Below are positions 5,912 to 56,244 of a stretch of DNA of 59,639 bases, piece after piece. The notes under the pieces were generated by a model. The model saw only the letters and a list, made by a program, of their open reading frames with translations, had not been told where the DNA came from and ran no database searches. Every line of letters starts with the position of its first letter. The stretch's first letter is position 1. The translations under genes and the position numbers were made by a program. The DNA is from a virus, in UHGV virus genome UHGV-1364324. One strand, 5' to 3'.

Positions 5912-8266
5912 ATGAAGGGATTACTGAACCGTAAACAATGGGTTTGCTGGAGGCTGGAGCATATTGAAGGTCGCCCAAAACCCACGAAAGTACCTTACAG
6001 CCCAGTCCACGGGTACAAGGCCAGTACAACAAATCCTGCTGACTGGTCTGACTATCATACTGCGCTGGGTATGGCGCAAATACATGGTATGTCTGGTGTC
6101 GGTTTCGTGTTCACTGAAAACGATCCCTATTTTTTCATTGACGTCGATAACTGTCTGGTAGATCAGGCTACAGCCACGTGGTCACCACTGGCACACGAAT
6201 TTGTAAACCGTTTCCCCGGCGCTTATACCGAAGTAAGCCAGTCAGGAACAGGTTTACATATCATCTGTGCGTATAGCAGTTTACCGGAAGGGTTCAACAG
6301 CCTTAACGATCAGAAAACCGGGCTTGAAATGTACTGGCGCGATCGCTTTGTTGCCATGACATTAACCGGGAATGGTGAAGTTGACGTTGATTATACACAG
6401 GGTGTTCATGACTCGATCGCCCGGTATGGTCGAATTCGTTCTGATCGTTCCGCACACTGGACCAGCGCACCCTGTGATGAATGGTCAGGACCAGAAGATG
6501 ACGAAGAACTGATCGCAATGGCGTTGAAGTCATCCAGTGCGGCTTCAGTTTTTGGTAATAAGGCATCGTTTGCGGATCTGTGGACGGCAAATGTTGAAAA
6601 ATTGTCTGTCAGTTATGCGAGCGATCAGGGGAAAGATTATAACGGAAACGCAGCTGATGCGGCTCTGTGTTCACATCTTGCTTTCTGGACAGGTAAAAAC
6701 TGTGAACGAATGGAGCGGTTATTTAATAAATCAGCGCTTGTTCGTGGTAAATGGACAGATCGAAAAGATTACCGTGAGAGAACAATATTAGGTGCAGTTG
6801 AACGTTGTGATACCGTTTATCGTGCACAACCCGCGCTGACCCCAGAACTGATTAACGCTGTTACGCCAGCGCCTACAGTTGCGGTAACGGGTAGTGTTCC
6901 GGCGTATATGTCAATCAGACCCGGTGAAGGTGCTTATGGGGCTAACCATACGGTTAACGCATCCACTTTCGTTAATAACTATTATCCAAATAACACACTG
7001 GTTTTTGTACAGCAGCAACCGTACCGCTTTAACGGTCGCGTCTGGGAACGTGTGACAGAAGATGAATTAAAACATCAGTTATCTATGGCAATGCTGGCAA
7101 GCGAACCAAAAGCTGATGTGATTAATGGTACATATAAAGTTTTAAGCTATCTATTTACCCGTGCCGATCGTGAGTTAGGCACCTGGCCGGGCGTTGATGT
7201 TTCACACTATATCGTGTGTCAAAACGGGATCCTTGATGTTCACACCAGAAAATGTGAACCGCACAATCCCGATTTCTTCACCACCAGTATTTTACCATAC
7301 AGTTACGATCCGTTTGCACAGGCACCCGTTTTTCAGGATTTTCTGAATACGACGCTGGAAGGCGATCAGGAACGTATTGCACTGCTGCAGGAATGGCTGG
7401 GGTATATGCTGGTTAACTCCTATGACTATCAGAAAGCGATGTTACTGATCGGTGCGCCTCGTTCCGGTAAGGGTACTATCGGCCAGATTATTCAGGCGCT
7501 GGTAGGTGATGAAGCCTATGCCGGGATTACGCTTGAAGGGCTGGCAAGTGATGCTGTTCTGGAAACTGTGCTTGATAAATCGGTGTTATTTATTGGTGAT
7601 GCTCACAGTGTTTCCGGGCCTGACCGTAACAGGATCCTCGACCGTTTTAAATCGATAACCGGTGCTGATGCGATACCTGTTAACCGTAAATATAAAGGAG
7701 CCTGGAACGGTCGTTTACCGGGTCGTATGACACTTGCCGCGAACAATATTCCGGCCTTTGCTGATGATTCTGGTGCAATGGCAAACCGCTTGCTGATCCT
7801 GCCGTTTAATATCTCGTTTTTGGGTCGTGAAGATATCACGCTGAAATCACGGTTAATGAAAGAATTACCGGGGATCTGTAACTGGGCTATCGAAGGTCTT
7901 GAACGGTTGCGTAAAAATAACCGCTTCACTGAACCAACAGCAAGCATTGTTGAGCGTCAGGAAATCATAGATCAGCAGGCACCGCTGATGGCTTTCGTTC
8001 GCGACTGCTGCGAGCTGTTACCTGATAGCGTAACCCACACTGAAGAACTTTTCTGTAGATATAAGATGTGGAAGATGCAGGAAGGTGGTGCGACGATGAC
8101 TAAAACCGCTTTCAGCCGGGCGTTTAAAAGTATGTTGCGTGGCCGCGTGGTTAAAGATGTGGTGTCTGTTAACGGTCAGCGGGCGAACGGTTTCCGGGGA
8201 GTGCGTTTACTCCCTTTCCAGCCAGCGGGTAACGTTGTTCCTTTCGCGCCCGCCAGTAATAGTTAA
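5912..8266 (+). CDS. bifunctional primase-polymerase (AEP/PrimPol N-term) + SF3/D5-like helicase
   Basis: FFIDVDNC primase-pol motif; Walker A GAPRSGKGT in C-terminal half; 784 aa. Confidence 0.8.
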   Translation: MKGLLNRKQWVCWRLEHIEGRPKPTKVPYSPVHGYKASTTNPADWSDYHTALGMAQIHGMSGVGFVFTENDPYFFIDVDNCLVDQATATWSPLAHEFVNRFPGAYTEVSQSGTGLHIICAYSSLPEGFNSLNDQKTGLEMYWRDRFVAMTLTGNGEVDVDYTQGVHDSIARYGRIRSDRSAHWTSAPCDEWSGPEDDEELIAMALKSSSAASVFGNKASFADLWTANVEKLSVSYASDQGKDYNGNAADAALCSHLAFWTGKNCERMERLFNKSALVRGKWTDRKDYRERTILGAVERCDTVYRAQPALTPELINAVTPAPTVAVTGSVPAYMSIRPGEGAYGANHTVNASTFVNNYYPNNTLVFVQQQPYRFNGRVWERVTEDELKHQLSMAMLASEPKADVINGTYKVLSYLFTRADRELGTWPGVDVSHYIVCQNGILDVHTRKCEPHNPDFFTTSILPYSYDPFAQAPVFQDFLNTTLEGDQERIALLQEWLGYMLVNSYDYQKAMLLIGAPRSGKGTIGQIIQALVGDEAYAGITLEGLASDAVLETVLDKSVLFIGDAHSVSGPDRNRILDRFKSITGADAIPVNRKYKGAWNGRLPGRMTLAANNIPAFADDSGAMANRLLILPFNISFLGREDITLKSRLMKELPGICNWAIEGLERLRKNNRFTEPTASIVERQEIIDQQAPLMAFVRDCCELLPDSVTHTEELFCRYKMWKMQEGGATMTKTAFSRAFKSMLRGRVVKDVVSVNGQRANGFRGVRLLPFQPAGNVVPFAPASNS

Positions 8267-9249: not shown

Positions 9250-9457
9250 ATTAGGAGCGGTGATCCGTAAAGGTGAACATTACGCACAAATTAACGATCG
9301 GCTGAACTGGGTTAATATCAATCATGCGACTGTTTTCAGTTCGACATATAAAGCAGGTATCGCACTGCAGGCACTTCGCGAACAAGGGTTTGATGTGCGT
9401 AAAATGTGTGTCGCACAGGTTAAGGTAATAACTAGTGTAATGGAGACTGGTGTATGA
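9242..9457 (+). CDS. hypothetical protein (71 aa)
   Basis: ATGA overlap at both ends. Confidence 0.4.
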   Translation: MTELGAVIRKGEHYAQINDRLNWVNINHATVFSSTYKAGIALQALREQGFDVRKMCVAQVKVITSVMETGV

Positions 9458-10143
9458 AAGTCGTCTGGTCGCTCTTTGATGGTTCCGGGATTATGGGTTT
9501 ACCGTGGGCTGAGGCTGGTTATCAGGTTTACTGCTTTAATGCGGATAAGGGTAATCACGGGGAATATAAAGTAAAAATGCATCACCCGAACCTTCATTAT
9601 ATTGACCAGTGGATTGACCCACAGTTTGCAATAAAACGGGAAATATTGGGAACTCCTTTACCCTCTATTGTTTTTGGTTTTCCTGATTGCACGCTGTTTG
9701 CACAGAGTGGGTCGCAACATGAAAGGTCACGGGGATCGCTGCAATATGCGTTAACACTGGCAAAACTAATCCGTGAACTGGGCGAACGATATAACGTACC
9801 GTGGATGATCGAAAACCCGGTAGGCGCATTATCCTGTCCTGATATGATGGGTAAACCTCACGCATATTTTCATCCGTGGGAATACGGAGGTCACATGACT
9901 GCTGATGACCGACCATTTCACCCAAAAATGCCGATGTTTGATGGGTATACAAAGAAAACCTGTCTGTGGTTCGGCAATGGCTTTAAGATGCCTGAAAAGT
10001 GTCCGGGGCCGATTAACATTGGTTTCTTCTGGGGCTGGAAGTATCTCGGTGGTAAGTCTGAAACGACTAAACAGTTACGATCATTAACGCCGCGTGGTTT
10101 TGCTCGTGCGGTATTCAAGGCTAACCATCATGACCCATCTTGA
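9454..10143 (+). CDS. DNA (cytosine-5)-methyltransferase-like protein, compact and non-canonical
   Basis: Motif I LFDGSGIMG, motif IV-like GFPDC (PDC instead of PC), motif VI ENP (ENV-like), C-terminal ARAV; only 229 aa. Confidence 0.5.
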   Translation: MKVVWSLFDGSGIMGLPWAEAGYQVYCFNADKGNHGEYKVKMHHPNLHYIDQWIDPQFAIKREILGTPLPSIVFGFPDCTLFAQSGSQHERSRGSLQYALTLAKLIRELGERYNVPWMIENPVGALSCPDMMGKPHAYFHPWEYGGHMTADDRPFHPKMPMFDGYTKKTCLWFGNGFKMPEKCPGPINIGFFWGWKYLGGKSETTKQLRSLTPRGFARAVFKANHHDPS

Positions 10144-10336: not shown

Positions 10337-10732
10337 ATGATAGTCGTGGTCACTGGTGGTCGTGATTATAACGATCAGGCCGCTATCTTTGGTGCGTTAT
10401 CAGTATTACATGCCCAACACCCGATTACCGAACTGATCGAAGGTGAAGCATCTGGTGTTGATACCATTTGCCGTGAGTGGGCGCAACTGAATGCAATCCC
10501 TGTGCGCCGTTGTCCGGCTGATTGGGGTAACCTTGACGTACCGGGCGCGGTTATTAAGCAGGGTAAACACGGGCCTTATAACGCCGTTGCTGGTCATCAG
10601 CGCAATCAGTCTATGCTGGATAATGAACCACGTCCGACATACGGTGTTGTGTTCCCCGGTGGGCGCGGAACGGCTGACATGCATCGTCGCATGTTGAAAG
10701 CTGGTTTAACTGTGTGGGTGCCTTATGGTTGA
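10337..10732 (+). CDS. SLOG-superfamily protein (DUF2493/YspA-like)
   Basis: VVVTGGRDYND ... PADW ... FPGGRGTADM pattern typical of DUF2493 SLOG domains; overlaps next gene by 8 nt. Confidence 0.55.
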   Translation: MIVVVTGGRDYNDQAAIFGALSVLHAQHPITELIEGEASGVDTICREWAQLNAIPVRRCPADWGNLDVPGAVIKQGKHGPYNAVAGHQRNQSMLDNEPRPTYGVVFPGGRGTADMHRRMLKAGLTVWVPYG

Positions 10733-11153
10733 TAGTTTCAGTGGTGAATATCGCTGGCTAAGTAATTTTTGGCCTGTACCTGTCAACTATGATGGGTACG
10801 TTTTTAAAACGGTGGAACATGCTTACCAGGCGCTTAAATGCAAATATCATCATGAATTTCTGGAAGTGAAAAACTGTGACACACCTGGTCAGGCTAAACG
10901 TTTAGCACGTCAAAAAATAATGCGTGATGACTGGGACGAAGTTAAAATTTCAGTCATGTTTTATTTACTGCAGCAGAAATTTTCAGATCCTCATTTATGG
11001 TCATTACTCATCGCTACAGGTGATCAACCCATTGTTGAAGGTAATCAGTGGGGCGACACTTTCTGGGGCGTTTGTCGTGGTAAGGGTGAAAACCATTTAG
11101 GTAAAATGATTATGGCTATCCGGGCCGGACAACAACACTATGAAACTGTCTAA
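10725..11153 (+). CDS. NADAR family protein (YbiA-like N-glycosidase / ADP-ribose processing)
   Basis: WLSNFW ... EHAYQALK ... signature of NADAR (DUF1768). Confidence 0.65.
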   Translation: MVDSFSGEYRWLSNFWPVPVNYDGYVFKTVEHAYQALKCKYHHEFLEVKNCDTPGQAKRLARQKIMRDDWDEVKISVMFYLLQQKFSDPHLWSLLIATGDQPIVEGNQWGDTFWGVCRGKGENHLGKMIMAIRAGQQHYETV

Positions 11154-11568
11154 AAAACAGCGTCAGGAACTACGCATGAAGTTTGGCGGGTATTGTGCTT
11201 ATTGTGGTCAGTTGTTGCCGGAAAAAGGCTGGCACGCTGACCATGTTGAGGCTGTTTACCGTGTTCTTAAACAGGATATGAAAGCCGCTAAAAAAGGTTT
11301 ATGGAAACTTAAAGCAACCGGAAAACACTACCGGGAACAAAATGATACGCTTGAAAACTTATTCCCAGCTTGTGCACCTTGTAACCTGTTCAAAACGACG
11401 TTCACCCTTGAACAATTCCGTAAACAGATCGGTGAGCAAATTAGCCGCGCCAGGTCGTACAGCGTCAATTTCCGCACTGCTGAACGCTTCGGACTGGTTC
11501 AGGTAGTTGAACGCCCCGTGGTATTCTGGTTCGAGATCTACCCTTTCATAGTTCAAAATAATTCTTGA
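11140..11568 (+). CDS. HNH endonuclease
   Basis: CAYCG ... HADH ... N ... CAPCN. Confidence 0.75.
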   Translation: MKLSKKQRQELRMKFGGYCAYCGQLLPEKGWHADHVEAVYRVLKQDMKAAKKGLWKLKATGKHYREQNDTLENLFPACAPCNLFKTTFTLEQFRKQIGEQISRARSYSVNFRTAERFGLVQVVERPVVFWFEIYPFIVQNNS

Positions 11569-11593
11569 CACATTGCAAACCCTCCACCATAAT
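11554..11593 (+). promoter_or_regulatory. conserved-family promoter (UP + TTGACA, 17-bp spacer, CATAAT)
   Basis: CAAAATAATTCTTGACA at 11554..11570; -10 CATAAT at 11588..11593; drives 11628 gene. Confidence 0.55.
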
Positions 11594-11627: not shown

Positions 11628-12386
11628 ATGACCAACATCCATTCACTGCGCAAGCTGTCAGAAGCAGACAAAGAAAACGTAAAACGCGCTAACTCCTTCA
11701 TGATCGACCCGCGCATTATCCAGATCGAGCCGGGCTTTAACCCGCGTGGTATGTTCACGGAAAACTACTGGGAACAGCCTGATACTCTGGCGCATATCGA
11801 ACAGTTCGTTAAAGCATACCGCAACGGTGATTTCGTCCCGCCGATTGCCGTTAAAGTTATCAATGGTGTGCCGTATGTGCGTGACGGTGAGCACCGCTTA
11901 CGGGCGCTGCGTAAACTGATCGCTGAAGGCGTACCGTTCCAGCGTGTTGAAGTCGTTGAAGCGTCTGGTGATGAACTGGCGCAGGCTAAAACCAACTTTA
12001 ACGCTAACAATGGTCGCCAGTGGTCAGCCGTCGAACGTGCGGTTCATTACGGTCGCTTTAAATCCTACGGTATGACCGTTGAAGAAATCGCCCAAGAAGT
12101 CGGTAAAACTGTACAGCACGTTTACCAGTTGCTGACTATCCTTGAAATGCCGCTGGAACTCAAACGCCGGATCCAGGAAGGGTCGATCAGCGCATCAGCC
12201 GCTATCAACCTGTTTAAAAACCCGGACGTTGCTACAGTAAAACGTCCCCCGGCTAAACTGATTCGTTCGGCTGTTGAAGCCATCCGTGGTGAATGGTCGG
12301 TCACGCGGCAGGAAGGCGGTAAAGTCCTGGTTGAATTGACCGCTGAACAGTATGAAGCACTGAAGGCGCTGAAAGATCATGAATAA
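11628..12386 (+). CDS. ParB N-terminal domain (ParB/Srx-like) protein
   Basis: VRDGEHRLRALRKL ParB-box-like motif. Confidence 0.6.
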   Translation: MTNIHSLRKLSEADKENVKRANSFMIDPRIIQIEPGFNPRGMFTENYWEQPDTLAHIEQFVKAYRNGDFVPPIAVKVINGVPYVRDGEHRLRALRKLIAEGVPFQRVEVVEASGDELAQAKTNFNANNGRQWSAVERAVHYGRFKSYGMTVEEIAQEVGKTVQHVYQLLTILEMPLELKRRIQEGSISASAAINLFKNPDVATVKRPPAKLIRSAVEAIRGEWSVTRQEGGKVLVELTAEQYEALKALKDHE

Positions 12387-12495
12387 ATTCCCAGTAGGAT
12401 TCAGAACGGTGGAAGAACGCCGTTCATTTTTCAAAACAATTATCGGCGCGTTTTTATTTGGCGGGCTGATACTTCTGTTGAGGGCGGTATTATGA
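12379..12495 (+). CDS. possible small membrane peptide (38 aa)
   Basis: ATGAATAA overlap with previous stop; hydrophobic C-terminus; low confidence. Confidence 0.25.
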   Translation: MNKFPVGFRTVEERRSFFKTIIGAFLFGGLILLLRAVL

Positions 12496-13304
12496 CCAGA
12501 GAAGAACTGCTGAACATCATTGAAACCGATCACGTTCAGTGTGGCGAGGCTGCTGCACTGGCCCGCATGGCGCTGGCAGCAATGGACAGCGAGCCGGTTT
12601 TCACTCTTGATGCGGCGCGTAAGTTGAAAGAGGGCAATTACCAGCTCTATCGCCACGCGCAGCCAGCGCCGGTAGTCTTTGATGCTATCGACACAAACTT
12701 GATTGACGCCCTTCGCCTGGTTCAGTGCATGCTGGATGACTATCGCGAGCGCAATTATGGTGACGCACAAGGTTGGATTAGACATATCAATACGCACATG
12801 AGCGACTACACTGAAGCGCATGGTGATGATGCCTACTCGGTTCTGCATAACTTAATTACAGCCTCCCCGCAGTCACCCGGCAGTGAACCCGCTACCGTGC
12901 CGGAGGAAATAACTTCGGCAATCGAAGGATTGAAACAGTCGCTGGTTGACTGCAACCGCTACAACTACTGCTTTGATGCAGTTACGCGTGTAGAAAATGC
13001 CTGCCGCGCCGCAATGCTCCAGGCTGGCAACTCTCCGGTAATTCAAGAAAGTTGCAGTGCTCAATTTGGAAATTTTCAGCATTACTGGCATTCAAAGGGT
13101 TACGTGATGGTGCCGAAGGAACCGACAGAGGCCATGTGTGACATCCGTCATATCGGTGTCGATGTCTATTGCGGAATAACTGACGACAATGAGTATTACT
13201 CGATAGGTGGCGCTGATGCTGCAAAAGTCTGGAAAGCCATGCTCGCAGCTGCACCGCAGGCACCCGGCATTGAACCGTCCACCGTGCCGGAGGTTAAACC
13301 ATGA
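12492..13304 (+). CDS. hypothetical protein with internal PGxEPxTVPE repeat
   Basis: 270 aa; about 45-bp direct repeat at 12862..12905 and 13249..13295. Confidence 0.5.
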   Translation: MTREELLNIIETDHVQCGEAAALARMALAAMDSEPVFTLDAARKLKEGNYQLYRHAQPAPVVFDAIDTNLIDALRLVQCMLDDYRERNYGDAQGWIRHINTHMSDYTEAHGDDAYSVLHNLITASPQSPGSEPATVPEEITSAIEGLKQSLVDCNRYNYCFDAVTRVENACRAAMLQAGNSPVIQESCSAQFGNFQHYWHSKGYVMVPKEPTEAMCDIRHIGVDVYCGITDDNEYYSIGGADAAKVWKAMLAAAPQAPGIEPSTVPEVKP

Positions 13305-22884: not shown

Positions 22885-24648
22885 ATGAATAAATTCGCTG
22901 GCAACATTCACAAGTACCCGCGCTGGCGGGACGCTTACGCAGAAGATGAACGGATCTGGCGCAAAGGTGAACCACGGCCTGATTACCGTCAGTGTTACAT
23001 CGACCGTATCAACCTGATAAACCGTATGCGCACCGATCGGGCGATCATTCCGGTACTGAAAAAGTATTATGAAACTAACCCGGTGGCGTTCATCCTCGAC
23101 TGGGCGTTTACCTACGATCCGCGTAACGTTGGTACGGAATTTCCGCCGAACATGCCGTTCTGTCTGTTTGAGCGTCAGATCGATATGATTCAGTTCGTTT
23201 ATGAAGCGCTCGAAGATAAAGAAAAAGGATTATGGGAAAAATCCCGCGACTATGGCGCAACGTGGGTAGCCTGCGGATTATCCGTGTGGGCCTGGCTCTA
23301 TCGTCCCGGTTCGTCAGTTGGCTGGGGGTCACGTAAAGAAACGCTCGTTGATAAACTGGGGGATCCTGACAGCATATTTGAAAAAATCCGCCAGATTATC
23401 CGCGCTCTGCCTCCTGAATTACGCCCGGTTGGTTACCGTGAAAAAGATCACCTGACGTTCATGAAATGTATCAACCCGGAAAACGGTGCAACAATCACTG
23501 GTGAGGCCGGGGATAACATCGGGCGCGGTGGTCGTAAATCAATTTATTTTCTCGATGAGGCTGCACACGTTGATCGCCCTGAACTGATCGAAGCGTCATT
23601 GTCAGCTAACACCAACGTTCGTATCGATATCAGTTCTGTTAACGGTGTCGGTAACGTTTTTTATCGCAACCGTAAAGCAGGTATTGAATGGGAGCCGGGT
23701 AAGAAAATACCCCGTGGTAAATTGCGCGTCATGGTTCTGGACTGGCGCGATCACCCGGCGAAAGATGATGAATGGTACAAGCGCGAAAAACAGTCATTCG
23801 CTGAAAAAGGTTTACAGCATATTTTCGCACAGGAAGTTGACCGCGATTATGCTGCAGCCGTTCAGGGTGTACTCATCAAAGCTGAATGGGCGCGGGCCGC
23901 ATTCGATGCGTTCAAAGATATCGCGTGGCGTAAAGCAAACGGTCTGCTTGCACCAGCAGGTAAACGCATTGCCGGACAGGATGCCGCAGACGGTGGTGAA
24001 GATGCGAGTGCACTGGTCGTTGCTCATGGTGTATTTATCACGCATCTACAACTTGACCACCGCAGCGCTGAACTGGCCGCACCTGGTATGCTGAATGCTG
24101 CGAACATGATCGGTGTTGATGAATACTGGTATGAAGTTAACGGCGTGGGTGCTGGCGTTAAAGTAGCGGCTAACGATCGTAAGGATACGTTGCGGTTCCG
24201 TGTTCGTCCGTGGTTACCGAACGGAAAAGTTGTCAATCCTGGCGGTGATATTATCGGCGGAACGATACCGGGCGATAAAGACCGTAAAACGAACAAAGAT
24301 TATTTCAGCAACTATAAAGCACAGGCATCATGGGCGCTGCGTATGCGTTGCCAGAGAATTTATAAATGGTACGTTGAAGGTCAACCACAGGATCCTGATG
24401 AGATTATTCTGATTGATCCGACAATGGAAAACGCGCAGCGTCTTGAGGCAGAACTATGCCAACCAACGTATAGCACTAATGGTGCGGGGAAAATAGTTAT
24501 TGATAAAAAACCAAACGGCTCTAAATCACCTAACTTTTTCGACGCAACCGTTATTGCTACTTCACCGAAGCGCGTAGAATTCGAGGAAGAAACGTTTACA
24601 GGTACAGTAAACGCTGTCGGAACACCAGATTACGGGAGTATATTCTAA
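22885..24648 (+). CDS. terminase large subunit
   Basis: 587 aa; deviant Walker A KSRDYGATW typical of TerL ATPase; nuclease-like C-terminal half. Confidence 0.8.
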   Translation: MNKFAGNIHKYPRWRDAYAEDERIWRKGEPRPDYRQCYIDRINLINRMRTDRAIIPVLKKYYETNPVAFILDWAFTYDPRNVGTEFPPNMPFCLFERQIDMIQFVYEALEDKEKGLWEKSRDYGATWVACGLSVWAWLYRPGSSVGWGSRKETLVDKLGDPDSIFEKIRQIIRALPPELRPVGYREKDHLTFMKCINPENGATITGEAGDNIGRGGRKSIYFLDEAAHVDRPELIEASLSANTNVRIDISSVNGVGNVFYRNRKAGIEWEPGKKIPRGKLRVMVLDWRDHPAKDDEWYKREKQSFAEKGLQHIFAQEVDRDYAAAVQGVLIKAEWARAAFDAFKDIAWRKANGLLAPAGKRIAGQDAADGGEDASALVVAHGVFITHLQLDHRSAELAAPGMLNAANMIGVDEYWYEVNGVGAGVKVAANDRKDTLRFRVRPWLPNGKVVNPGGDIIGGTIPGDKDRKTNKDYFSNYKAQASWALRMRCQRIYKWYVEGQPQDPDEIILIDPTMENAQRLEAELCQPTYSTNGAGKIVIDKKPNGSKSPNFFDATVIATSPKRVEFEEETFTGTVNAVGTPDYGSIF

Positions 24649-25352
24649 TGACCACGCTAACACTCTTGAGTAGTGAAACCAGTGACGATTTATTGACCAA
24701 AATCAATGATGCATTGAGTGATGGTAAATTTCTTTACGGTACAACAACAGTTTTACCGGGTGAGAGTCATAATCCGGTGCGTTTTTTCCAGTATGTCAGC
24801 GATATTGATATTACCAGCGGGGCAAGCGCTTATGACATCTGGCTACAGCAGGGTAACACAGGAAGTGAACAGGATTTTCTGGATAGTCTACAGGGTGCAT
24901 CCTACGTGCGCCAGAAATCAGAGGTAACCTGGTCTGGTATCTCACTGGTTATTCCAACCGAATCGCCGATCAACCTGATTAACGCACTGAAAGCACTCAC
25001 CCCCAGCGGTGGTACGTTAGCGCCATTCTTCAACACCACTGACAACAAACTGCACGTATTCAACCAGAACATGACGGTTAATTTTAAACTTAACCTGATT
25101 GGTTCATGGGCAGGATCAACCGAAAACCGCAGCATGACCCTAAATTTTGTCGGTACAACAGGTAACACACTGACTTATTCACGAGATAGTAGCGTGACCA
25201 GTGATAATGTATCGTTCAGAACGTTCCTGAGTATCGACCAGGATGGGAATATTGCAACGAACGGTACAGAGTTGACGATCGTCAGTAACGGTGCAGCGTT
25301 TACTGCTACACAGGTGCTATTGATTGCCGAACAGCTTGTTCCGACTCCTTAA
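24648..25352 (+). CDS. tail-fibre-like / virion fibre protein
   Basis: SAYDIWLQQGNTGSEQDFLDSLQG motif common in phage fibre proteins; TAATG coupling to TerL. Confidence 0.4.
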   Translation: MTTLTLLSSETSDDLLTKINDALSDGKFLYGTTTVLPGESHNPVRFFQYVSDIDITSGASAYDIWLQQGNTGSEQDFLDSLQGASYVRQKSEVTWSGISLVIPTESPINLINALKALTPSGGTLAPFFNTTDNKLHVFNQNMTVNFKLNLIGSWAGSTENRSMTLNFVGTTGNTLTYSRDSSVTSDNVSFRTFLSIDQDGNIATNGTELTIVSNGAAFTATQVLLIAEQLVPTP

Positions 25353-54716: not shown

Positions 54717-54935
54717 TTCTTCAACGCTCACTTCAACCCACGATGCCGGAACAGGGTATTCAGTCCGATACATGAACAGGGATGTTCCGATCAAACCGTT
54801 AGGATCTGTTTTAATTCCCTGCATGGCAACCAGTGGTAAAAACTGTTCACGAGTTTGTGACAGTCGCGCAAAGCGCCCTGTGGGACGTTTTGCCGGGTCC
54901 ATAGGGTTAAACTCAACGATTGTTGACATAAGCAA
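54696..54935 (-). CDS. hypothetical protein
   Basis: 79 aa; convergent overlap with o-spanin. Confidence 0.4.
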   Translation of the reverse strand: MLMSTIVEFNPMDPAKRPTGRFARLSQTREQFLPLVAMQGIKTDPNGLIGTSLFMYRTEYPVPASWVEVSVEELLKAVY

Positions 54936-56244
54936 TCCTCTGTTTAGCTATTTCACAATAATGTGGGTCCATTTCAAAACCGATAAATTCAAAACCTTCA
55001 ATTGCGCAGGCTTTACCAGTTGAACCACTACCTGTGAACGGATCCAGAACTTTACCGCCCGGTGGTGTAACAAGGCGCACAAGCCATTGCATCAGCGCTG
55101 TAGGTTTCACCGTAGGATGGTTATTACGTGCGCCTGATGTACGCCCGGCACCAGCGCGGGGACTGTTTAACCCGTCAGTATCAGGTTCACGCCCGGTCAT
55201 TTCCGCACCAGTTACCATTGCCAACATCACACCTTCATCACGGTCTGATTTGCTCGCTTTAGCACAGTAGAAGAAACGCGCGGCGCTACCAGTATCTGAA
55301 TAGAATTGACCTGGTACACGATCATTAAATTTACCGTAAATACCGTTAGTCACTTCACTTTGTTCAGTACCTTTCACAGGTGCAGCAGCGCCAGCTTTCG
55401 CCGGGAACAAATTTACGACTTCATCAGAACCATCGTGGATAAAATTAGCTGGGAAGCGTCCAGTGGTTGTATCAACAGCCCCGGTGCGATTGCTACCGTT
55501 TAAACCATCACCAAACGCATTATCAGATATTTCATTTCTTTTATTAAATACAGGTACACCATCTGGCGCAGCAACCCGACAATCATCAATATTCATACCA
55601 CCCGTGCCGAACTGCAGGATATTTTCAGCAACCGTTCCTGTCAGTGGTTTACGCGCAACGCAAATAGGCTCGTGAGCAGGTTTTAAAGCTGTTCCCCATC
55701 CTTGCCACTGTTTCGCTTCGTCGGTGGCGGGTGCGGTGATATTTATTTCTCTGCTTTGATTTAAAACTTCGCTAAACTCGTTGTTACCTCCGCTTCTTCC
55801 ACCTTCACTTTTCCGTGTACCTACGACCTCACGTTCTGCACCTGCCGCTTTGTCAATCGCCTTACTCACATCCAGTGACTTAGGGAAACCGGAACCATAA
55901 ACCCAGTCAATTTGATCGCGGATTTCAAATCCAGCTAAACGGATCGCCAGTGTTCCTAGGTCATAGGTGCGTGTGCCGAAAAACGCCAACAGGTGACCAC
56001 CGGGTTTAAGGACGCGGAAAACTTCTTTCCAGACTGACGGACCCGGAACAAAACTATCCCAGGTTTTACCCATGAAACCACCGCCTGTATGAACATAATC
56101 GTCACCGTTTAACCAGTGGCGTAAAACTTCGTTCATATCAGGTTGTTTACTGAGTCCGTAAGGCGGATCCGTCACGACTGCATCGATACTGTTATCAGCA
56201 AGCATCATACGCATACCGATCAGGCATTCTATGTTAATCACCAT
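54913..56244 (-). CDS. DNA methyltransferase (N6-adenine/N4-cytosine, DPPY motif)
   Basis: AVVTDPPYG motif; 443 aa. Confidence 0.75.
   Translation of the reverse strand: MVINIECLIGMRMMLADNSIDAVVTDPPYGLSKQPDMNEVLRHWLNGDDYVHTGGGFMGKTWDSFVPGPSVWKEVFRVLKPGGHLLAFFGTRTYDLGTLAIRLAGFEIRDQIDWVYGSGFPKSLDVSKAIDKAAGAEREVVGTRKSEGGRSGGNNEFSEVLNQSREINITAPATDEAKQWQGWGTALKPAHEPICVARKPLTGTVAENILQFGTGGMNIDDCRVAAPDGVPVFNKRNEISDNAFGDGLNGSNRTGAVDTTTGRFPANFIHDGSDEVVNLFPAKAGAAAPVKGTEQSEVTNGIYGKFNDRVPGQFYSDTGSAARFFYCAKASKSDRDEGVMLAMVTGAEMTGREPDTDGLNSPRAGAGRTSGARNNHPTVKPTALMQWLVRLVTPPGGKVLDPFTGSGSTGKACAIEGFEFIGFEMDPHYCEIAKQRIAYVNNR

Follow-up and report, generated by a model that had tools for sequence, protein, structure and literature searches.

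A YbiA-type NADAR gene overlapping a SLOG gene in a Klebsiella siphophage may encode a stand-alone, facultative counter-defence enzyme

We analyzed a 59,639-nt stretch of viral DNA (UHGV-1364324, hereafter the window), which sequence comparison identified as the complete genome (~59.6 kb) of a 9NA/Sasha-like Klebsiella siphophage. Within its early/replication operon, a SLOG gene of the YAcAr (DUF2493) family overlaps by 8 nt a gene predicted to encode a ribosyl N-glycosidase of the NADAR family (Table 1). An earlier note, made from the letters of the DNA, had located both open reading frames (ORFs), assigned them to these families on short motifs, and proposed that they form a translationally coupled, ADP-ribose-centered counter-defence unit that had not been described before. 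Both ORFs and their overlap are intact exactly as it gave them, they do lie in the early region, every quoted motif is present, and both family calls were borne out by Pfam scores far above cut-off and by structure prediction. The coupled unit held up less well: we lean towards a stand-alone, facultative counter-defence NADAR next to an older, lineage-conserved SLOG gene, with an adjacency that is historical or organizational.

The NADAR protein carries WLSNFW at residues 11-16 and EHAYQALK at residues 31-38, and matched Pfam PF08719 at 81.3 bits (cut-off 35.1, E 1.2e-22), with residues 8-134 covering positions 9-160 of the 163 in the profile. It also matched phrog_1017 (1.4e-42), and a sequence search of the PDB returned E. 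coli YbiA (2B3W, 6.4e-16). The predicted model (predicted local distance difference test score, pLDDT, 87.4; loop 108-120 of low confidence) has the YbiA fold: Foldseek matched it to 2B3W with a template modeling (TM) score of 0.78 and 33% identity, to 8BAU with a probability of 1.00, and to the ADP-ribose (ADPr)-bound NADAR of Phytophthora. The ADPr-binding and catalytic residues of the P. nicotianae enzyme are E43, K50, R79, W89, R93, E125, D130, and W133 (PMC11543638); in an alignment, their equivalents in the phage protein are E31, K38, R62, W70, K74 (lysine for R93), E105, D111, and W114. These positions were conserved across 33 homologues, in which E31, H32, K38, K58, W70, E105, N107, W109, D111, and W114 were invariant. 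The last-strand residue, which is Glu in the YbiA subfamily, Asp in BC4488/DarG1 NADARs, and His in T4-type AdfN (PMC11125620, PMC11543638), is Glu here (IVE105GN). The alignment to YbiA begins at residue 4, so the protein lacks an N-terminal extension, and its best 120 homologues are all single-domain proteins. Judged from sequence and predicted fold, this is a YbiA-subfamily member with an intact active site. It does not resemble the BC4488/DarG1 subfamily, given its Glu instead of Asp, the missing extension, and neighbors that are SLOG and HNH genes, with no ADP-ribosyltransferase (ART) domain; nor does it fall in the T4-type AdfN (gp30.3) cluster, given E105 and a 9NA/Sasha-like siphophage as its source. 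PADLOC gave a weak PDC-M42C match for NADAR and weak PtuB-like matches for the HNH protein, all uninformative.

Homology to T5-like phages supplies the functional context. The window NADAR is 43% identical (E 3e-41) to a NADAR found in 96 T5-like phage records, a family that includes the BASEL phages IrisVonRoten and HildyBeyeler, which we take to be Bas32 and Bas33. Three phage NADARs, T4 AdfN, NADAR-Bas32 (T5-like), and NADAR-Bas60, counter DarTG1 (Johannesman, Carlson & LeRoux 2024, PMC11257639); NADAR-Bas32 and NADAR-Bas60 also neutralize DarT1 without phage, NADAR-Bas32 restored plating on DarTG1 hosts, and the same authors state that NADARs generally act as single-domain proteins. Guanine-ADPr is hydrolyzed in vitro by every NADAR subtype that has been assayed, among them E. 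coli YbiA and a YbiA-type antitoxin from myxobacteria (PMC11125620). From the T5-like homology, the strongest functional lead for the window NADAR is an orphan antitoxin-like DNA de-ADP-ribosylase, and by analogy we infer that its substrate would be ADP-ribosyl-guanine DNA. The counter-defence role that the earlier note gave to the pair is therefore plausible for the NADAR alone, since one member of this 43%-identical family has been published as acting against DarT1.

The SLOG protein carries GGRDY at residues 7-11, PADW at 60-63, and FPGGRGTADM at 106-115, and matched the YAcAr profile PF10686 over residues 1-63 (75.1 bits, cut-off 28.2, E 3.7e-21) as well as phrog_289 (1.4e-25); the best 120 database homologues all bear PF10686 alone. 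Sequence searches against PDB chains found no match, and relatives appeared only in fold comparison of the predicted model, a three-layer Rossmannoid with YpsA, LOG, DprA, ShosA, and the SLOG domain of ThsA with bound 3' cyclic ADP-ribose (3'cADPR) as structural neighbors. Searches with PADLOC and NCBIfam returned nothing for this protein. Residues G7 G8 R9 and P107 G108 G109 x G111 T112 x D114 were invariant in 40 sequences, and the pocket motifs GGR, GxxxGxD, RN, and PGGxGTxD are strictly conserved, which suggests that a nucleotide or nucleotide-derived ligand is probably bound or cleaved.

The distribution of both genes among close relatives bears most directly on whether they act as a unit. 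A tblastn search with SLOG (E<=1e-25) retrieved 53 phage records, 16 of which (14 distinct phages) were at least 77% identical to the window protein, the rest being mostly Queuovirinae at ~48%. Close NADAR homologues were found in three of these 14 phages (KP13-27, phi_KPN_H2, and AVIO78A), and SLOG occurred without NADAR in the other 11, such as Sasha, Sergei, Solent, Carvaje, Kpn BU9, VLCpiS10a, and Bas82; by organism counts, the remaining NADAR matches made up the T5-like set. When 14 related loci were compared by local tblastn, SLOG and ParB stood as fixed anchors on either side of a variable slot, which was found in four states. Both NADAR and HNH are present in the window, in an IMG/VR locus (L005), and in KP13-27 (with a partial HNH match); NADAR only in phi_KPN_H2, AVIO78A, and a Logan contig (L170); HNH only in Sasha, Carvaje, and a second IMG/VR locus (L006), in each of which HNH directly follows SLOG, and, from annotation, in Sergei and Solent, with Kpn BU9 also of this type; and neither in VLCpiS10a, Bas82, and L007. 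In FSL SP-062, SLOG itself is reduced to a remnant. The SLOG tree follows phage lineage and not NADAR presence, such that the SLOG of Carvaje is 98% identical to that of the window yet has no NADAR beside it. SLOG and NADAR are thus not gained, kept, and lost together in these relatives, which largely refutes the coupled pair as one unit, and the occurrence of all four slot states supports the independence of the two genes.

Three of these relatives merit description in their own right. In KP13-27, which is 97% identical to the window across the test region, the GenBank ybiA coding sequence (CDS) starts internally (342 nt); tblastn found the full 142-codon ORF intact (L001:3826-4254), 98.6% identical and with the 8-nt SLOG overlap, ruling out a truncated NADAR, and the short CDS looks like an annotation error. 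The Salmonella phage FSL SP-062 (L173:1501-1703) retains a 40-aa Dcm remnant and a 34-aa SLOG remnant (91% identical) beside intact HNH and ParB genes, and this deletion of most of Dcm and SLOG indicates that SLOG is dispensable in that phage. The Logan contig SRR33471211 (L170:4089-6130) holds four nucleotide-centric genes in a row: HD_4 (PF13328, a RelA/SpoT-type HD domain), YAcAr SLOG, NADAR, and Nmad5 (PF18757, nucleotide-modification-associated).

Among less related viruses, just one of the 80 closest IMG/VR SLOG loci had a NADAR within 4 kb, and that one belonged to the same phage type. The locally built NADAR hidden Markov model (HMM) might miss distant NADARs, so this count was cross-checked by a Pfam census of the immediate neighbors at the 80 SLOG loci, which found NADAR once only and no Macro or Nudix domain. 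Downstream of these SLOG genes, SF2 helicase (12 of 79) and HNH (three) were seen, and upstream there were sigma-70-like genes (8 of 80), primase or DnaB-like genes, and others. The helicase that often follows SLOG in loci L009-L084 is ~580 aa long with ResIII/DEAD/Helicase_C domains and forms a recurrent SLOG-helicase neighborhood. The immediate neighbors of 79 other viral NADARs were heterogeneous, with no dominant partner; YAcAr was tied for most frequent, and DUF4326 and NUDIX occurred once each. No SLOG-NADAR fusion was present among the 120 best SLOG and 120 best NADAR matches, such fusions being known from the literature alone.

We suggest that SLOG and NADAR are distinct genes, early or accessory in kind, in the 3'-terminal part of a replication-module operon and that, as we infer, their proteins are independent of each other. 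DarT1-type or similar guanine-targeting host toxins would place ADPr on phage DNA, and the NADAR, working without a partner as a DNA ADP-ribosylglycohydrolase of the orphan-antitoxin kind, would remove the guanine-linked ADPr during infection so that replication could proceed, as published for T4 AdfN and NADAR-Bas32. SLOG would be an older gene of the lineage with a nucleotide-binding or nucleotide-processing role, persisting without NADAR in most relatives, and the adjacency and 8-nt overlap may go back to a single ancestral placement of NADAR in the variable slot that separates SLOG from the ParB promoter.

Several observations weigh against this separation. Every member of the lineage with a NADAR has it immediately after SLOG, with the same 8-nt overlap (KP13-27, phi_KPN_H2, AVIO78A, L005, and L170), and the Logan contig keeps adjacency and overlap at just 60% (SLOG) and 64% (NADAR) identity. 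The SLOG and NADAR identities track each other (98/99, 93/92, 79/88, and 60/64%), which indicates long co-inheritance and fits a NADAR placed once, in an ancestor, and since then repeatedly lost or exchanged by recombination; such long co-residence is not independent evidence of function. In addition, 6 of the 79 independent viral NADAR loci had a same-strand YAcAr SLOG no more than 4 kb away, directly adjacent in two (L115 and L153) and within ~1 kb in three. This is a modest enrichment over a rough chance expectation of 1-2 in 79, which was derived from the published SLOG frequency (7-31% of phages) and 8 kb sampled from ~50-150 kb genomes, with no formal null model. Some functional SLOG-NADAR link is possible given these six loci and the published fusions. 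E. coli YbiA and T4 gp30.3 gave no rescue from DarT1 in one study (PMC11125620), so in vitro activity is no guarantee of anti-DarT function. Lastly, the NADAR narrowly passed the NCBIfam model TIGR02464 for riboflavin biosynthesis intermediates N-glycosidase (76.9 against a cut-off of 73.7).

The SLOG-NADAR association itself was already in the literature. Iyer et al. 2021 (jumbo phages, PMC7824862) and Iyer, Burroughs, Anantharaman and Aravind 2022 (PMC9503650) reported that most SLOG domains of viruses belong to the YpsA-like/YAcAr type, that they are fused to or share conserved neighborhoods with NADAR, Macro, and DUF4326, that SLOG and NADAR co-occur above chance, and that SLOG is also fused to HNH and helicases; they proposed that the SLOG/NADAR modules probably degrade host ADPr-derived signals. 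With both the pairing and the counter-defence prediction already published, the claim of an undescribed system fails, and the hypothesis of the earlier note is essentially this prediction. Applied to the window, it would mean that SLOG binds an immune signal or toxin that the host derives from ADPr (cyclic ADP-ribose isomers, ADP-ribose-1''-phosphate, ADPr-1''P, and the like) or breaks its adenine N-glycosidic bond, and that NADAR cleaves another ribosyl N-glycosidic bond, the two together blunting Thoeris-like or other NAD+-derived signaling. The published architectures speak for such cooperation, as do the six unrelated loci, the DUF4326 and NUDIX neighbors of NADARs, the 3'cADPR-bound ThsA domain among the structural neighbors of SLOG, and the pair and overlap kept in the Logan contig between HD_4 and Nmad5. 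We nevertheless find it unlikely, because most close relatives carry SLOG without NADAR, because the 80 closest viral SLOGs have helicases, sigma factors, and replication genes as neighbors and never an adjacent Macro, Nudix, or second NADAR, and because the phage NADARs that have been tested act on DNA and alone (PMC11257639); our literature search also found no experimental study of any phage SLOG or YAcAr protein. A specific two-step version, in which SLOG captures or opens an ADPr-derived messenger or recognizes ADP-ribosylated DNA and NADAR completes the destruction, seems to us quite improbable. If it were true, it would give the widespread phage YAcAr SLOG family its first experimentally tractable function, and loci with SLOG only, SLOG and HNH, or SLOG and NADAR would be different tunings of one sensor-effector slot.

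Two other accounts leave ADPr signaling aside. The NADAR may be a metabolic housekeeping enzyme that removes reactive ribosylamino-pyrimidines or other damaged nucleotide intermediates during the burst of nucleotide metabolism in infection, with SLOG next to it by coincidence. The TIGR02464 score agrees with this, as do the last-strand Glu of YbiA type and E. coli YbiA being the best solved-structure relative, and in the Enterobacter phage EC151 (Queuovirinae, L166:856-4420) a 50%-identical NADAR directly follows DpdA in a cluster of preQ0 transporter, QueD, FolE, and DpdA genes. We hold this account to be doubtful: genes for riboflavin or 7-deazaguanine are absent from the window, YbiA-subfamily members including the myxobacterial antitoxin do hydrolyze guanine-ADPr (PMC11125620), the T5-like family includes a tested anti-DarTG1 factor (PMC11257639), and sporadic presence among near-identical phages is typical of counter-defence genes. 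Alternatively, SLOG may be a replication or recombination accessory unrelated to ADPr, either a DprA-like binder of single-stranded DNA or nucleotides or a protein that regulates a helicase or nuclease, next to which the NADAR happened to land. That would suit the SF2 helicase as the most frequent downstream neighbor (with HNH in three loci), the primase, DnaB-like, and sigma-factor genes upstream, the position of the gene between the primase and Dcm genes and ParB, DprA and ShosA among the structural neighbors, and HelB of phage ICP1, an SF1B helicase with a fused DUF2493 domain. Against it, SLOG has just 131 aa and none of the extra DprA domains, its invariant GGR, PGGxGTxD, and RN motifs are of a small-ligand type resembling the nucleotide pockets of LOG and YpsA, and the remnant in FSL SP-062 means that it is not essential for replication; we give this account little weight as well.

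The EC151 cluster is fed by a GTP cyclohydrolase, and some phage YbiA-type NADARs may be linked to 7-deazaguanine DNA modification. Such a link was considered for the window, with SLOG homologues in Queuovirinae and the EC151 NADAR after DpdA, and was rejected here, as tblastn searches of the window with the EC151 preQ0 transporter, QueD, FolE, and DpdA gave no match. A prophage or host origin of the pair was likewise rejected, with no megablast match in 5,426 complete E. coli genomes.

The genomic setting of the pair is given in Table 1. Besides KP13-27, relatives of the window phage include Carvaje, Kpn BU9, phi_KPN_H2, and Salmonella and E. coli phages of the Sashavirus and Nonanavirus groups. 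The early/replication genes run in the order helicase, exonuclease, primase, small ORFs, Dcm-like, 65-aa ORF, SLOG, NADAR, HNH, and ParB-like. The Dcm-like gene comes and goes independently of SLOG among relatives, and the ParB-like gene was found in every relative examined. Copies of the 65-aa ORF are 97-98% identical in KP13-27, Carvaje, phi_KPN_H2, and VLCpiS10a, and profile searches of Pfam, PHROG, and NCBIfam gave no family match for it.

Table 1. Features of the SLOG-NADAR locus and its surroundings in the window.
Feature	Coordinates	Strand	Evidence or remark
Primase	5912..8266		early/replication region
Dcm-like DNA cytosine methyltransferase	9454..10143	+	phrog_757, 5.5e-77; upstream of SLOG, same operon
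Small conserved ORF, 65 aa	10130..10327	+	between Dcm and SLOG
YAcAr-family SLOG (DUF2493), 131 aa	10337..10732	+	ATG start; conserved early/replication operon gene
YbiA-type NADAR, 142 aa (predicted ribosyl N-glycosidase / ADP-ribosylglycohydrolase)	10725..11153	+	ATG start; PF08719, TIGR02464, fold
Start/stop overlap of SLOG and NADAR, 8 nt, ATGGTTGA	10725..10732	+	read directly from sequence
HNH endonuclease	11140..11568	+	phrog_2118, 5.9e-56; PF01844, 4.8e-05; 14-nt overlap with NADAR
Sigma-70 promoter-like site, TTGACA-17-CATAAT	11565..11593	+	11/12 consensus positions; consensus match only
ParB-like protein	11628..12386	+	phrog_1033, 2.8e-55; PF17762; constant downstream anchor of the slot

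Neighboring genes overlap by 4, 8, or 14 nt at 7 of the 11 successive junctions that lie between 8473 and 13304, so the SLOG/NADAR overlap is the usual packing of this operon and does not mark out the pair. The coupling that the earlier note read from it is nonetheless plausible: SLOG is preceded by a good GAGG Shine-Dalgarno sequence, whereas no strong one precedes the NADAR and HNH starts, and NADAR is probably translated in coupling with the gene before it, by termination-reinitiation, as is usual in this operon. The promoter-like site sits in the 59-nt gap between HNH and ParB, just downstream of the variable slot, and a promoter is annotated at the equivalent position in the AVIO78A record. 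From these consensus matches, SLOG, NADAR, and HNH would be the last genes of a single transcription unit.

Other features of the genome were also observed. In addition to the Dcm-like protein, a second DNA methyltransferase is encoded, a phrog_67 enzyme of 443 aa (54913-56244, minus strand). A 270-aa ORF at 12492-13304, with weak matches to phrog_60 and other families, contains an internal duplicated segment ending PQSPGSEPATVPEE and PQAPGIEPSTVPEV, suggestive of a domain duplicated in tandem. The C-terminal half of the ORF at 24648-25352, directly after the large terminase gene, matches the 'tail needle knob' family phrog_1030 (1.6e-74), an odd position and an odd family for a siphophage.

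If the NADAR works as predicted, 9NA/Sasha-like phages of Klebsiella, E. coli, and Salmonella, some of which are considered for therapy, bear a facultative anti-DarT-type gene, which would help to explain host-range differences between near-identical phages. The natural, isogenic-like variants with SLOG only, SLOG and HNH, SLOG and NADAR, or all three make both the function of SLOG and the dependence of NADAR on it testable. The window NADAR would be one more phage counter-defence enzyme of a class already known and brings nothing conceptual beyond published work.

Compared with known systems, the phage SLOG is just 13-19% identical to the SLOG domain of Thoeris ThsA, B. subtilis YpsA, and LOG phosphoribohydrolases, and it is a stand-alone 131-aa protein without an effector domain. 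Its acidic residue lies at T+2 (D114) and not at the position of the LOG glutamate, which we take to be that in PGGxGTxxE. The NADAR resembles the orphan anti-DarTG1 NADARs (AdfN/gp30.3, NADAR-Bas32, and NADAR-Bas60) in being stand-alone, ~140-150 aa long, without an adjacent toxin or a DarG1-type N-terminal extension, and with a complete set of catalytic residues. It differs from them in its phage group, in an activity that is predicted by homology, and in its position directly after a SLOG gene, and from the T4-like AdfN cluster in having Glu where AdfN has His in the last strand; in HASG4, the one T5-like phage examined, no SLOG is annotated within 3 kb of NADAR, going by annotations only, with flanks not scanned against Pfam.

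E. coli YbiA and the plant COG3236 proteins, N-glycosidases of riboflavin intermediates (Frelin et al. 2015, as cited in PMC9503650 and PMC11543638), share with the window NADAR the Glu-type active site and the 'naked' YbiA fold, YbiA being its closest solved structure, whereas the window NADAR is phage-encoded, has no riboflavin context, and is sporadic among near-identical genomes. DarG1, the BC4488-family antitoxin of DarTG1 (Schuller et al. 2023, PMC11543638), belongs to the same superfamily and likely shares its chemistry, guanine-ADPr removal, but the window NADAR lacks the N-terminal beta1-beta2-alpha1 extension, has Glu for Asp, and has no adjacent DarT gene. The pair as a whole is closest to the architectures of Iyer et al. 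(PMC9503650 Fig. 5h/5i), with a YAcAr/YpsA-like SLOG beside a NADAR in the early region and a following HNH gene that echoes their SLOG-HNH associations. Their description is computational and stresses fusions and larger phages, whereas here the two are separate proteins of a 60-kb siphophage and their pairing is facultative.

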